DNA of 41,714 nt from Candidatus Velthaea sp. (GTDB lineage: Bacteria > Vulcanimicrobiota > Vulcanimicrobiia > Vulcanimicrobiales > Vulcanimicrobiaceae): positions 1 through 41,714 of the forward strand of contig JBEKHC010000058.1 in assembly GCA_050012475.1 (NCBI GenBank), read 5' to 3'. The position numbers and the translations under genes were made by a program. Below, in pieces: positions 14,389 through 18,885 of this stretch. The first letter of the stretch is position 1. Every line of letters starts with the position of its first letter. Under the pieces are notes generated by a model that saw only the letters and a list, made by a program, of their open reading frames with translations, was not told the DNA's origin and did no database searches.

Positions 14389-14528
14389 CGCCAACCGCCA
14401 ACCGCCAATCGCCACCCGCGGCTTGGCGCGAAGCGCTTAACGCCACCGCGGCTTGCGGCGCAGCCGCAAACGCCACCGCGGCTTGGCGCGAAGCGCCAAA
14501 CGCCAAGGGTTCGGGCAAGCCCGAACCC
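14389..14528. repeat. Heptamer run, three 30-bp hairpin tandem units and a final hairpin
   Basis: CGCCAAY x3 (14389-14409); CGCCACCGCGGCTTG-hairpin-AA units at 14410, 14441, 14471; GGGTTCGGGC-AA-GCCCGAACCC at 14507-14528. Confidence 0.85.
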
Positions 14529-14586
14529 AGGTGGGCCAAACATCCCAACCGAGACCCCGGAATCGGCGCGGCTGGGGACGAAGCGC

Positions 14587-14613
14587 GAAACCGTCGCACT
14601 TTGACCCTGGTCT
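14587..14613 (+). promoter_or_regulatory. Possible ECF-type autoregulatory promoter
   Basis: GAAACC-N17-GTCT ending 10 nt before the sigma ATG; fits the general AAC.../GTC ECF pattern. Confidence 0.3.
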
Positions 14614-14623
14614 TGGACCGAAG

Positions 14624-15298
14624 ATGAGTGCCCTTGCACCGATCCTTGGGGATTACCGTTTGACCGTTCCGGCGACGACGCCGGCGCCGGCGCGTTTGGC
14701 AAAAGGTACGCCGGCACCCGAGAACTTCGAGAAGGTCGTCGACGACTACCAGCGGCGGTTGTACGGCTTCGCTTTGCGCATGACGGGCAATCGCGAAGAC
14801 GCCGAAGAGATCGTCCAGGACGCATTCGTTCGCGCCTACCGTGCGCTGACGAAAATGGACGAGCAGCAGCGCGCCGAGCTGCGGCTGCAACCATGGCTCT
14901 ACACCATTACTCTTAATGTTACACGTAACCGGCTGCGTTCGAAGCGCCCCACGAACGTCGCGCTCGATTCGCTTGCCGATCCCGATGCGCTGCTCAACGA
15001 AACGCAAGAAGGACCCGATCAACCCGAACACATCGTCGATCGCGCCGCGGATATGGTGCTCGTCGAGCAAGCCTTGCTGTCGCTGCCCATGCACTTACGT
15101 GCCGCCGCGACACTGCGGTTCATCGAAGGCCGAAGCCATCCGGAGATTGCCGAGATATTGAATCAGCCGATCGGGACCGTCAAGTCGCACGTGCATCGCG
15201 CCGTGCGCATCCTGCGTCGTATCCTCGGTCCACAAGTCGGCCGTATCGTTGCGGCGGAAACCGATGATTCGAAGGAGTCCACCGATGCGGTGCTGTGA
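14624..15298 (+). CDS. ECF RNA polymerase sigma factor
   Basis: Region 2 LYGFALRMTGNREDAEEIVQDAFVRAY...WLYTITLN; region 4 EIAEILNQPIGTVKSHVHRA. Confidence 0.95.
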   Translation: MSALAPILGDYRLTVPATTPAPARLAKGTPAPENFEKVVDDYQRRLYGFALRMTGNREDAEEIVQDAFVRAYRALTKMDEQQRAELRLQPWLYTITLNVTRNRLRSKRPTNVALDSLADPDALLNETQEGPDQPEHIVDRAADMVLVEQALLSLPMHLRAAATLRFIEGRSHPEIAEILNQPIGTVKSHVHRAVRILRRILGPQVGRIVAAETDDSKESTDAVL

Positions 15299-16055
15299 TG
15301 TCGAAGCCCTTTGGGACGATTTGCGTGACGGCGGCGAAGTCAATCGCAAACACGTCCTGCTGCATCTGCGGTCGTGCCCGCCGTGCCAGCAGCTTTACGA
15401 ACAGTACGAAGGCATCGCCTACTGCCTGACGTGTCTGCCGATCGTCGAGCCGCCGCGCGATCTGGTGCCGAAGATCATCGAGCATATCGAGGCGACGGTG
15501 CGTTCGGCGCGTAAGCCTGATTGCGTCGCGAAGGTCGATTCGCCGGTCGGCAAGCTGTACATCGCTTTTCGGTCGACGGGGATAACGGCCGTCGCGTTGG
15601 ACCGCGGCGAAGGCGACGAGGTCGCGCACGAGCATATCTCGCGCCGCTTGCGGCGCGGCGTCGTCGCCGCGGCGGCCCCGGCCTGGGTCAGCGAAACGCT
15701 CAACGCGTTTTTCCGCACGCACTTGCCGGACTACGATCGCGTCGATATCTCCGATCTGAGTCCGTTCGAGCAGTCGGCGTTGCGTGCAGCGGCGCAGATT
15801 CCGCCCGGCGAAGTTCGTTCGTACGGTTGGATTGCCGAAAAAATCGGCGCGCCGAACGCTGCCAGCGCGGTCGGCCGCGTGATGGCGCGTAACCCGGTGC
15901 GCATGTTGTATCCGTGCCATCGCGTCGTCGACGCCGCCGGGCATCTGCACAACTACGGGTACGGCCTCGACGTCAAGGCGCGTATTCTTGAGTTGGAAGG
16001 TTTTGTCGGCACCGTGCAAGTGGCAGAAAAGGCACGCTCGACGCAGCAGGTTTAG
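15285..16055 (+). CDS. Zinc anti-sigma (ZAS/zf-HC2) domain fused to methylated-DNA-protein-cysteine methyltransferase (Ogt/AGT)
   Basis: AAGGAG RBS; C3-x23-H27-x3-C31-x2-C34; then DSPVGKL, IPPGEVRSYG, NP..LYPCHRVV, YGYGLDVKARILELEG; overlaps the sigma stop. Confidence 0.9.
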   Translation: MRCCDVEALWDDLRDGGEVNRKHVLLHLRSCPPCQQLYEQYEGIAYCLTCLPIVEPPRDLVPKIIEHIEATVRSARKPDCVAKVDSPVGKLYIAFRSTGITAVALDRGEGDEVAHEHISRRLRRGVVAAAAPAWVSETLNAFFRTHLPDYDRVDISDLSPFEQSALRAAAQIPPGEVRSYGWIAEKIGAPNAASAVGRVMARNPVRMLYPCHRVVDAAGHLHNYGYGLDVKARILELEGFVGTVQVAEKARSTQQV

Positions 16056-16111
16056 CGCGCAGCGATTCGCGAAAGAAGCTCTTCATACGACGTCCGCGGC
16101 TCCGCTAAACA

Positions 16112-16290
16112 CAGATGATCGGCGGTTAACAGACGGACAAGAGGAGGTGATCATCGTTACTTGCGACAGTTCCCAACACAGCCAGAAATCGATGATTGGA
16201 GGTGCGCAGACGTAGGGTCCGTCCCGAGGCTGCGCAGCTAGAGAAAACCCCGAGATCTTGTCCGCCGGCCGCCGTGGCCGGCTTTTTTTT
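16112..16290 (+). ncRNA. Candidate structured small RNA or leader (family not recognised); 5' end uncertain
   Basis: Intergenic, lower GC, several internal complementarities, two GGAGGTG tracts, ends in a clear intrinsic terminator. Confidence 0.45.
16264..16290 (+). terminator. Rho-independent terminator
   Basis: GCCGGCC-gccgt-GGCCGGC followed by T8. Confidence 0.9.
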
Positions 16291-16524
16291 GCCATCGATA
16301 CGAACGGCATTCGGCCAAAGGCCTTCGGGGCGATTGGGACGAAAAAGACATGTCGTGTCTGAGCGCGTCCTCTCGACGAGCTTCGAGCGGTTCGGTGATT
16401 GCCGTGAGATTGCAGCCCGCGAGCGGCACCCGTTCGCACGCTGGGCGGTTTGCATCGGCTGTCCCGCCCCGACCGATGCAGGCGTTGCTCCCGGCCAAGG
16501 CTTTTCCCGCGGTTTGCGATCCCT

Positions 16525-18885
16525 TTGGCGCACTGCGGCATCCCCGCGGAATACGAACACTTGAACGACAACGCTGAACACGACCCGCGTTTGCACGCGA
16601 TACCCGACACGCACGGGCACGCCAAGGGCGAGCACAAGGCCTTTACCGACGAGCGGCCGATCCCGCTCTCGGCGCGCATGCTCTTCCTCTGGTTCTACCA
16701 CGCCTGCCGGCGCGGGTCGCCGCGTTTCTTGATGGTCAGCGACCACATGAACTATCTGACGTTCGAGGATCCGGCAGCCATTAATCTCGTGCGCCGGGCG
16801 CTCAAGCTGGCTCAAGCCGGGGATCTGTACGGAGCGGCCGAGACAGCAAGCGTCGAGGTTGGCCACGCGGCGGTCGTCTCTGAAGGTTTGCGCCGCGGCA
16901 TGCGCTATTCGATCGGCGCGGAGGTCGACAACGACCCTCGCTCGCGGCCCGACGCGCAAAACATCGTCGACGCGATGAAGCCCGACGGAATGATCCGGTC
17001 GGTCCACTTCCTGACGATCGACCATCCCGCGCACGGACCGAACTGGAACTGGCCGTTCGACAATCCCGAATTTGCCGAAGTCTACGAAATCGTCGGCACG
17101 GCAAAGCTTTGGGAGCTCTACATGGCAACGCTGCTGGACGCCATCGAACGGCTGCCGGGCAACATCGTCGGCCACTTCTATGTGCCGGCGCTCTTCGGTC
17201 ATTGGCCCGACGACGCGGCGCTCGACGAGTACGAAAACCAGCTCGTCGACGCCTGCGAAGCACGCGGCATGGCGATCGAATTCAATACGCGGTTCCTCTA
17301 CCGCGAACACTCCGACGAAGAAAAGGCGAAGTACCTCGCGGCGCATCGCCGGCTGCTCGCGAAGTGCAAGGCGAAAAACGTGGGGATCGCGGTCGGATCC
17401 GATGCGCACAGCCCCAAAGATCAGGGCGGCGCGTTTACGACGGTGCTGGCCCTGCTCGACGAATGCGAGATCAACGAATTGGTGTTTCCGCTGGCTGGCC
17501 GGTTGGCGCGCGTCGCGCTGCGCGTCGAACGCAAGCCGGAACCGGTGCCGGAACCGGCTCCCGCGGCGTCAGATGAACGGAAGTCGGCGCGCCGGGCGCG
17601 GCCGGTCGAACCTGCGGCACTCGAGGAAGCCTCGTCCGCTTCGACTCCGGCCGCCGAACCGCCAAAGGCCAAGCCGGCGCGTCCCAAGCGCAAGCCGAAA
17701 GCCTCCGACAGCGTCGAGGCCGTTGCGGTCGCGCAGGAAATCGCGCACGTATCCGCCGCCGGCCACGAAGGCACCGAGATCGAGCACGCCGATGTCGAAC
17801 CGGTCGCGCCAGAGCCGGTACCAGCGTACGCCGAGGCGGGTTTCGAATCGGCAGCCCAGCCCACGGCAAGCGAAGTTCGGCCCGCGCAGCAGGCCGAAAC
17901 CGAACCCGAGGAAACGGCCGAAGACAGGACCGAGCCGGCCGCCGCGGAGGCTGCCGGAGAAGCAAATTCCGAAGCGGCGGTCGCTGACCACGAAGCCGCT
18001 GAAATCGAGCCGGACGCCGCTTCCGCCGCCGCCGAAGCCGAGCCGGCAGTCGTGGCCGAGGCTGAGCCGGCAGTCGGGTTCGAGCCCGTAATCGTTGCCG
18101 AGACCGAGCCCGCAGTCGTCGCCGAGACCGAGCCCCTAATCGTCGCCGAGACCGAGCCCGCAGTCGTCGCCGAGACCGAGATCGAGCCCGCGATCGTCGC
18201 CGAAGCGGAGGCGGCGGCGGTCGCCGAGGACGAGGTAATCGAAGCCGATTTCGAGTCCGTCGCTGGCGCCGAAGCGGAGCCCGAACCGGCGGCGGCCGCC
18301 GCAATCGAGCCTGGCGGCAACGTTGTAGTCGTCGAAACCGCGGACGCTTTCGTAAGCGCGCCGATCGAGGATATCGTCGGCGAAGCGGAATTCGAGCCGA
18401 TCGTTAACGGGGCGGCGGAATCGGCCGAGAACGAGGCGGCCGAATCCGCCGAGGGCGCCGGCGAAACGCTTGAATTTCCGCCGCTCGAAAGCGAAGAAAA
18501 CGTCGTTATCGTTGTCGCCGAACCGAGCGTTGTCGAGGTGGTCGAAGCTCCGGTCGTGCGGCGGCCGCGAAGCAAAGCTCCGGCTACGAAAGCGAAGGCC
18601 TCGGTCGCCAAGAAGCCCGCCGCCAAGCCCAAACCGGCCGCAAAGAAGGCCGCCAAACCCACGGTTAAGGCAGCAGCGAAGAAGGCTGCGGCCAAGAAAA
18701 CCGCGAGCAAAAAGGCCGGCGCGCAAAAATCGGCCGCGAAGAAAGCGGCGGCCAAAAAAGCCGCGCCCAAAAAAGCCGCTCCGAAGAAAACCGCGGTTCG
18801 TGCGACCGCTGCAAAGAAAGCGGCTCCCAAGAAACCAGCGGCAAAAAAGACGACGCCGAAAAAAGCCGCGCAGCGGCGGCGCTGA
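16525..18885 (+). CDS. PHP-family (HisJ-like) phosphoesterase with long acidic linker and histone-H1-like Lys/Ala tail; start uncertain (TTG 16450 or 16525)
   Basis: DTHGH, SDH, GAEVD, SVH, VGH, IEFNT, GSDAH metal motifs; E/A/P-rich middle; KKAAAKK/PKK repeats at the C-terminus. Confidence 0.85.
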   Translation: MAHCGIPAEYEHLNDNAEHDPRLHAIPDTHGHAKGEHKAFTDERPIPLSARMLFLWFYHACRRGSPRFLMVSDHMNYLTFEDPAAINLVRRALKLAQAGDLYGAAETASVEVGHAAVVSEGLRRGMRYSIGAEVDNDPRSRPDAQNIVDAMKPDGMIRSVHFLTIDHPAHGPNWNWPFDNPEFAEVYEIVGTAKLWELYMATLLDAIERLPGNIVGHFYVPALFGHWPDDAALDEYENQLVDACEARGMAIEFNTRFLYREHSDEEKAKYLAAHRRLLAKCKAKNVGIAVGSDAHSPKDQGGAFTTVLALLDECEINELVFPLAGRLARVALRVERKPEPVPEPAPAASDERKSARRARPVEPAALEEASSASTPAAEPPKAKPARPKRKPKASDSVEAVAVAQEIAHVSAAGHEGTEIEHADVEPVAPEPVPAYAEAGFESAAQPTASEVRPAQQAETEPEETAEDRTEPAAAEAAGEANSEAAVADHEAAEIEPDAASAAAEAEPAVVAEAEPAVGFEPVIVAETEPAVVAETEPLIVAETEPAVVAETEIEPAIVAEAEAAAVAEDEVIEADFESVAGAEAEPEPAAAAAIEPGGNVVVVETADAFVSAPIEDIVGEAEFEPIVNGAAESAENEAAESAEGAGETLEFPPLESEENVVIVVAEPSVVEVVEAPVVRRPRSKAPATKAKASVAKKPAAKPKPAAKKAAKPTVKAAAKKAAAKKTASKKAGAQKSAAKKAAAKKAAPKKAAPKKTAVRATAAKKAAPKKPAAKKTTPKKAAQRRR
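18031..18230 (+). repeat. Coding 24-bp tandem repeat (AE[T/A]EPA[V/I]V)
   Basis: GCCGAGACCGAGCCCGCAGTCGTC-type units at 18097, 18121, 18145, 18169 with degenerate copies on both sides. Confidence 0.85.

Follow-up and report, generated by a model that had tools for sequence, protein, structure and literature searches.

The locus and its RNA

The window, that is, the whole stretch of 41,714 nucleotides analysed here (contig JBEKHC010000058.1 of Candidatus Velthaea sp., host genome G000), carries a small RNA element on its forward strand, between an ECF sigma/anti-sigma–ogt gene pair and a PHP-family gene. Within the pair (14453–16055), the ECF sigma factor gene overlaps a gene in which an anti-sigma-like domain is fused to an O6-alkylguanine methyltransferase (15249–16055; PF01035, TIGR00589). 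The downstream gene (16450–18885) encodes a PHP/HisJ-like domain, a long acidic linker and a Lys/Ala-rich, histone-H1-like tail (PF07382, below the cut-off); ahead of it lies the decayed start of a pcp-like gene (16355–16564), presumably of a pyroglutamyl-peptidase-like protein as judged by its N-terminal motif. A second AGG...GAA motif and the pcp remnant together span 16319–16396. Over 14 residues the remnant is 50% identical to an intact relative (E 0.14 in a comparison with this stretch alone); the host genome yielded no intact copy of pcp. Among loci with a homologous short element, hereafter mini forms, the anti-sigma/methyltransferase gene lies upstream in 108 of the 119 with enough flank, while PHP and pcp genes follow in 98 of 114 and 61 of 116, respectively.

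A promoter-like motif of the form AGG-N18-20-GAA is found at 16046–16074, placing the likely transcription start near 16080–16082. The same motif stands 18–20 nt before the first helix, P1, in 79 of 102 long mini forms, all 38 protein-coding forms and 4 of 28 short forms, compared with 0.0–0.5% in shifted control windows. It resembles what we take to be the SigH consensus, and a SigH gene exceeding the cut-off is present in the host and in 59 of 61 genomes of the class; the transcript is thus probably driven by SigH. A sigma-70-like promoter at 16126–16154 was set aside, as it lies within the conserved RNA. We looked for RNA in contigs of four metatranscriptomes from one study (X1–X4), which show presence and not strand, ends or level. 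An identical 101-nt RNA-library contig in X3 covers 16113–16211, its word depth of 461 being the highest among the 32 listed pieces. Contigs of X2 and X4 extend from ogt into the element and X1 does not cover it, so read-through or DNA is a possible source. None of the four runs covers 16215–16376, which we do not count as evidence.

A preliminary description of the locus had proposed a discrete terminated transcript from 16112 to 16290, with an 11-nt tract complementary to the 16S rRNA tail (at 16142), a second GGAGGTG (at 16198), a 22-codon open frame (16147–16215), a strong terminator and five complementarities (16134/16256, 16132/16217, 16150/16190, 16114/16149 and 16203/16230). All of these motifs and arms are where it placed them, and a discrete, terminated transcript fits the comparative evidence; the conserved element begins further 5′, at about 16081–16092. 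The description missed the conserved 5′ domain, the conservation of the frame and the fixed position of the stop codon discussed below. Two of its alternative pairings are local to the host genome or genus, the arm at 16217 having a counterpart in 1 and that at 16114 in 5 of 127 mini-form homologues.

The 5′ domain (16092–16138) consists of P1 (16092–16096 with 16134–16138) enclosing P2 (16102–16106 with 16121–16125) and its purine loop (16107–16120). In the comparison of homologues, P1 is 98% and 86% paired with few two-sided changes. P2 is 98% paired, has two-sided changes at two of its five pairs and, in a second alignment, at four, and covaries across both orders of the class. Its loop follows an (A-N)n pattern, with A at 16107, 16109, 16111, 16113, 16115 and 16118 in at least 90% of 58 aligned rows. 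The domain is followed by SD1, an extended Shine–Dalgarno sequence (16140–16152), whose 3′ end, together with the first base of the likely start codon, is covered by P3 (16150–16156 with 16190–16196). P3 is paired in 100% of the 58 rows with zero two-sided changes, a pairing largely fixed by the search pattern, as is part of the SD1 motif; in 37 long protein-coding forms, its counterpart has a partner of different sequence that is nearly invariant. A second SD-like motif, SD2 (16198–16204), leads into P4 (16203–16236), a hairpin whose 5′ arm is made up of the last three codons and whose loop contains the stop codon; 16216–16229 is an insertion specific to the window. The covariation is strongest in P4: among 111 hairpins there are 58 different 5′ arms, each with its own matching 3′ arm, and the mean energy is −12.5 kcal/mol compared with −6.8 for shuffled partners. 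The UA of the stop codon is unpaired in 100 of the 111. The intrinsic terminator (16264–16290) is 92% paired and has two-sided changes at five of seven pairs. The long-range pairing described earlier between 16134 and 16256, here P1′, is real and looser: its 3′ arm (16256–16264) can pair with 16134–16142, competing with P1 and covering part of SD1, and is 78% paired with weak covariation. Folding favours P1′ over P1 in 47 of 97 long mini forms, and the short forms lack it.

Taken together, the five-helix model is 91.9% paired in the 58 rows against 84.9% in shuffles, with 118 and 36 two-sided cells, respectively, a comparison in which relatedness alone can beat the shuffles; all slid controls remain below 49%. 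By folding energy the element is modestly better than shuffles only (z −2.17; −1.67 in a repeat). We regard the predicted helices P2 and P4 and the terminator as shown by comparison. No Rfam family matches at gathering score anywhere in the window, with sub-threshold, terminator-type matches locally, and six homologous loci likewise gave only matches of that kind. A tmRNA and a divergent 6S RNA were rejected since other loci hold them: neither ARAGORN nor Rfam (RF00023) finds a tmRNA in the window, the host tmRNA lying on contig C193, and RF00013 has no match at the element, sub-threshold 6S candidates being found elsewhere in four of five genomes. The tmRNA match of the host (C193, 2510–2983), missed by ARAGORN, is about 474 nt long, and that of genome G001 473 nt, compared with about 350–360 nt in other family members. 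The 6S candidate of the host (C62, 16939–17122) has counterparts in three of four relatives.

Selection on the frame and the stop codon, and the likely start

SD1 forms 11 Watson–Crick pairs, or 13 pairs with one G–U, with the 16S 3′ tail, a duplex of about −20 kcal/mol. The tail was taken from relatives, four of the five searched having one complementary to the tract, because the host 16S gene is not in the assembly. The 11-nt tract occurs once in the host genome. Among 8161 GGAGG or GGGGG sites, it is one of four with 11 Watson–Crick pairs; allowing G–U, seven have 13 or more. Thirteen contiguous pairs, including G–U, are kept in 123 of 127 mini forms (maximum 14), while the Watson–Crick count varies. 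Other long-SD sites in the host and in G007, G009 and G027 are situated in coding sequence or on its opposite strand, or lack a frame of this kind, and we saw no replacement element in G009, G012 or G144.

The mini-ORF of the window (16156–16215) has 19 codons plus UAG, and those of its relatives have 14–23. In a tree of 124 mini forms, the distance from SD1 to SD2 has changed at least 33 times and the frame has been broken once (L202), whereas three flanking spacers break the frame in 41 of 48, 50 of 68 and 20 of 26 changes. When a search pattern permitted match lengths from 52 to 82 nt, 80 of 80 match lengths among those listed were divisible by three. Spacings between the two motifs range from 40 to 67 nt. 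The coding signal is that of a frame under selection; the comparative evidence is consistent with the earlier suggestions of a non-AUG micropeptide mRNA and of an RNA that binds the 30S subunit. The end of the frame is conserved too: of 134 complete mini forms, 132 have an in-frame stop placed exactly 15 nt from where SD2 begins, the exceptions being L202 and L049, in which the stop is lost with a five-codon read-through. Offsetting frameshifts in L171 alter the peptide and keep the stop position. The stops comprise 92 TAG, 40 TAA and zero TGA, with at least 22 switches between TAG and TAA across the tree; in the host, TGA terminates 1346 of 2724 long frames. With the stop codon in the A site, the GGAGG of SD2 stands 7 nt before the last sense codon, in the P site, compared with 8 nt at the start. 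Part of the conservation of SD2 could be accounted for by its internal pairing, as an arm of the terminator in short forms.

The peptide is constrained unevenly. In 48 disjoint pairs, pN/pS is 0.21 at codons 5–8, 0.59 in the loop and 0.92 at the last three codons; as the method drops below 1 under transition bias, the loop value may be near neutral. The low value at codons 5–8 indicates constraint at the amino-acid level, and the peptide may thus matter. We read the pattern as selection that acts chiefly on translation of the frame and on its end point, the first residues being under some constraint as well. Three elements cut by contig ends (L026, L187 and L074) were left out of the frame and codon counts, and L049, L171 and L202 out of the codon tables; L075 and L100 were left out of alignment A2, and L194 and L204 out of A3 (mis-trimmed).

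The likely start is a non-canonical GUU at 16156–16158. This position, codon 4 of the open frame and 8 nt after GGAGG, is GTT in 94 of 122 distinct ORFs, GTA in 17, GTC in 9 and ATT in 2, and none of the 122 has GTG or ATG at codons 2–4; 55 metagenome loci in which the pattern fixed codon 4 as GTH were kept out of this claim. The element thus combines a conserved codon other than AUG, GUG or UUG, presumably a start, with a putative AU/GU-extended SD, the pairing of SD1 stopping 3 nt before it. Codon 4 has departed from GTT about eight times, six times to GTA and never to GTG, while six genes of the window use GTG 58 times and GTA 3 times; the six-to-zero split is no more than suggestive. In a rough genome count, ATG is commonest 4–7 nt after GGAGG, 8 nt being still in range, and the infC gene of the host (C91, near 14000) appears to begin at AUA behind a normal SD. 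Initiation at 16156 would give an N terminus of M-S/T, as in the normally started orthologues of the protein-coding form described below.

The rival start is the canonical GUG at 16147–16149 inside the SD1 tract, which would be read from a weak upstream GGA hidden by P1, with SD1 acting as an early-elongation pause site. All 122 ORFs keep this GTG in frame without variation, which the pairing of SD1 alone explains, and a purine run stands 11–12 nt upstream of it in many long protein-coding forms; the distance is 15 nt in 5 of 37 of these, however, and shifts often in mini forms. Moreover, binding by SD1 is far stronger, and the three extra hydrophobic residues are found in none of the normally started orthologues. 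We therefore favour codon 4, roughly 3 to 1, and consider a start at the GUG improbable. The alternative concerns the start site only and can be combined with any mechanism.

Distribution and the protein-coding sister form

By BLAST, the element is found in 21 of 60 relatives, and an exact pattern retrieved 88 stretches from the species collection, mostly labelled Vulcanimicrobiota or Eremiobacterota, a few bearing other labels. Of 150 family genomes, a covariance model built from 58 sequences is positive in 95; the remaining 55 lack the element, which is hence dispensable. In one genus of the family the model found it in none of 25 genomes. In a sample of the phylum, the model matched 27 of 71 genomes of the family, 1 of 1 of the order's second family and, weakly, 8 of 9 of the class's other order, and there was no match in 69 genomes of other families. 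We collected 252 loci, corresponding to 176 distinct elements, of which 136 are mini forms and 40 protein-coding forms; being from relatives, they are not independent samples. Elements from unpublished genomes are included, L016 (G032) and L017 (G024) in alignments A1–A3 and the tallies and L247 (G048) in the long-form tallies, and dropping the three leaves the result unchanged. The genome tallies (relatives, family, phylum sample, DUF1858 and SigH) also contain genomes marked unpublished. Two loci without a frame were excluded (L029 and L184, the latter a weak model match in G007, E 0.003), and a single viral match was dismissed as the end of a phage gene with no match to the covariance model. 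The element is single-copy in the host genome. Three genomes have two copies each, L010 and L030 in G001, L189 and L193 in G023, and L026 and L031 in G040; these may be duplications or artefacts of assembly or binning.

The P1/P2 domain, SD1 and the first codons recur in the sister order, where they head a frame of 78–81 amino acids (from codon 4) that is followed by its own terminator. The encoded protein exceeds the TIGR03980 cut-off (53.3 bits against 44.95) and belongs to the DUF1858 hybrid-cluster-associated redox disulfide domain. The codon at the start position of these forms is GTC. An orthologue of the domain is kept as a single copy in all three families, in 70 of 71, 1 of 1 and 9 of 9 genomes, respectively. 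In the host order it sits elsewhere and has a normal start codon followed mostly by S, T, A or N, an N terminus as expected if the sister form is initiated at codon 4. The mini-mRNA may derive from a regulated mRNA leader that became detached, or the leader from the mini-mRNA; from two lineages, the order of origin cannot be told. One further DUF1858 match, in G140, had no leader match. The host-order orthologues (C81, 8693–8875 in the host, and L248–L268) have a longer C-terminal part; at the three loci examined, the gene lies upstream of what we take to be a rapZ-like gene, and it follows the presumed 3′ end of an RNase P-like RNA. Judging by motifs, two protein-coding forms (L181 and L223) lie downstream of a presumed prfB-like gene and before a glycosyltransferase, and in a third (L178) two genes stand between the presumed prfB-like gene and the element, what we take to be a glycosyltransferase again following.

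Interpretation and known systems

The element is a real, conserved and probably translated mini-mRNA of soil Vulcanimicrobia. We give about an even chance to the reading that the RNA works by being translated, and not by way of its peptide, as a weakly initiated mini-mRNA that holds ribosomes. A stand-alone transcript of about 205–210 nt would offer the 30S subunit an extended SD of 11–13 pairs, while P3 and the near-cognate GUU would make initiation an infrequent and probably IF3-sensitive event. The small number of ribosomes that do initiate would read 19 codons and arrive at the UAG in the hairpin loop, where pairing of SD2 with the 16S tail, at an almost initiation-like spacing, should slow release or recycling. 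Ribosomes would thereby be held at both ends of the tiny frame, and the stability or activity of the RNA would be coupled to the fidelity of initiation; the same leader would control the 78–81-amino-acid redox-domain protein in the sister order. A more specific version is put forward tentatively, namely, a "two-grip" ribosome clamp freed from the leader of a protein gene. In it, SD1 would park a 30S subunit on the near-cognate start and SD2 hold a terminating ribosome at a stop readable by RF1, the RNA serving, under SigH control, as a store, sensor or titrator of ribosomes or IF3. The two motifs are never less than 40 nt apart, which leaves room for two ribosomes.

Alternatively, the element could be an ordinary, tightly repressed small-protein gene whose product acts in trans through an N-terminal S/T-S/T-D/E-S/G motif, one conceivable target being the redox-domain protein that carries it as a fusion in the sister order. 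The constraint at codons 5–8 speaks for this, as do the use of both AGY and TCN codons for serine, the same residues at the start of the long sister-order protein and the retention of the partner domain in nearly every genome of the family. Against it, the frame varies from 14 to 23 codons with a near-neutral middle, its last three codons track an RNA helix, the MIGG stretch has changed in L167, L170 and L171, and in long protein-coding forms codons 5–8 are almost invariant by nucleotide, although this is partly fixed by the pattern; we regard an active peptide as unlikely. A type I toxin mRNA, with its hydrophobic peptide and antisense antitoxin, does not fit as far as the peptide goes, the loop being rich in S, N, Q, K and R. 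A slim chance remains for an RNA that acts in trans or binds proteins, either Hfq through the (A-N)n loop or as a sponge for CsrA or for sRNAs bearing CCUCC, with translation only stabilising it or timing its decay. The host encodes Hfq (NGFQ stretch) and CsrA. The five alternate A's of the P2 loop conform to the (A-N)n pattern preferred by Gram-positive Hfq (PMC3505971), and a strong SD is reported to protect RNA against RNase J1 (PMC5737220). A sponge for CsrA is harder to reconcile with SD1 being GGGGG in all long protein-coding forms and several short ones, so that the GGA is gone, and CsrA was not found in the single sister-order genome tested; neither version explains the fixed distance from SD2 to the stop.

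In a translation-coupled version of the earlier proposal of an attenuator for the PHP gene, extended here to pcp, a ribosome held by SD2 at the stop would block formation of the terminator. P4 itself serves as the terminator in 19 short forms; there, its pairing falls from 0.98 to 0.00 once a ribosome at the stop is masked, and for these forms only, attenuation is plausible. In the window, masking the start region cuts terminator pairing from 0.98 to 0.31, and PHP and pcp genes are frequent downstream neighbours. Yet the 97 long mini forms share no such switch: on average, their terminator pairing is 0.71 in the free RNA, and 0.88 or 0.75 when a ribosome occupies the start or the stop, respectively. 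Nor is there a fixed downstream gene that depends on the leader: ogt is directly followed by pcp or PHP in five of five genomes without the element, the host retains the element with a mere remnant of pcp, the second promoter-like motif lies downstream, and the neighbours differ around long protein-coding forms. For the long form carried by the window attenuation of the PHP gene is not supported, and we think the attenuator reading very unlikely.

In the mostly open-access literature searched, we found no account of the element, or of an SD at a constant distance ahead of a stop codon. Such a motif is a testable handle on control at termination or recycling; the natural fusion of leader and protein is a second, giving a reporter and a possible origin. 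Leader-peptide transcription attenuators combine a short translated frame, a stop near the terminator and alternative helices, all shared by the element, whose long mini forms differ in having no shared antiterminator, no fixed regulated gene and presumably weak, not efficient, initiation. The TIGR03980/DUF1858 redox domain is encoded behind the element's leader in the sister order, whereas in the host order its gene lies elsewhere with its own normal start.

Extended SDs with non-canonical starts are established in Staphylococcus aureus, where AU- and GU-extended SDs lengthen the spacing, accompany conserved AUU or AUA starts and can have GU in place of AU, with infC, ccpN, citZ (AUA) and cvfC1 (AUU) as examples (PMC13009471). 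The element resembles these sites in its putative start-proximal AU/GU extension and conserved weak start, and the long sister form fits directly; it differs in that its codons are mostly GUH (GUU being absent from the main text of the paper), its start is in a hairpin and the mini form has no protein domain. A protein gene present across the class may start at GUC, and gene finders would miscall it.

We know of no job assigned to rre-type mini-mRNAs since they were first described. The rreB and rreR RNAs are small mRNAs of Alphaproteobacteria; rreB binds 30S subunits, is weakly translated from a start 7 nt after the core SD and, overexpressed twenty-fold, leaves growth unchanged, its authors doubting simple sequestration of ribosomes (Hahn et al., RNA Biol, PMC5711450). 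The likeness, which is one of features and not of sequence similarity, is broad: a stand-alone small transcript, an SD extended past its core toward the start, a ribosome-binding site in a hairpin, a weak start and a 14–23-codon frame that ends in UAA or UAG and has no assigned function. For the element, the stand-alone transcript and the hairpin are predicted from the promoter motif, the terminator and P3, as RNA contigs cannot show ends. Its small ORF is conserved in frame and stop and partly in peptide sequence. We do not file it as an rre member, though it may work like one, because rre RNAs have a complement of 16 nt or more to the 3′ end of 16S rRNA, which extends as far as the first base of a GTG start lying 7 nt beyond AGGAGG, and the element has neither. 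It forms 11–13 pairs where rre RNAs form 16–17, and its start is probably GUU, GUA, GUC or AUU at 8 nt after GGAGG, not GUG at 7 nt. It further adds, relative to what is described for rreB and rreR, a second SD fixed to the stop, the upstream P1/P2 domain, a variable peptide and a protein-coding sister form. If the clamp reading is true, the gene of the sister order would reveal how rre-like RNAs arise from mRNAs.
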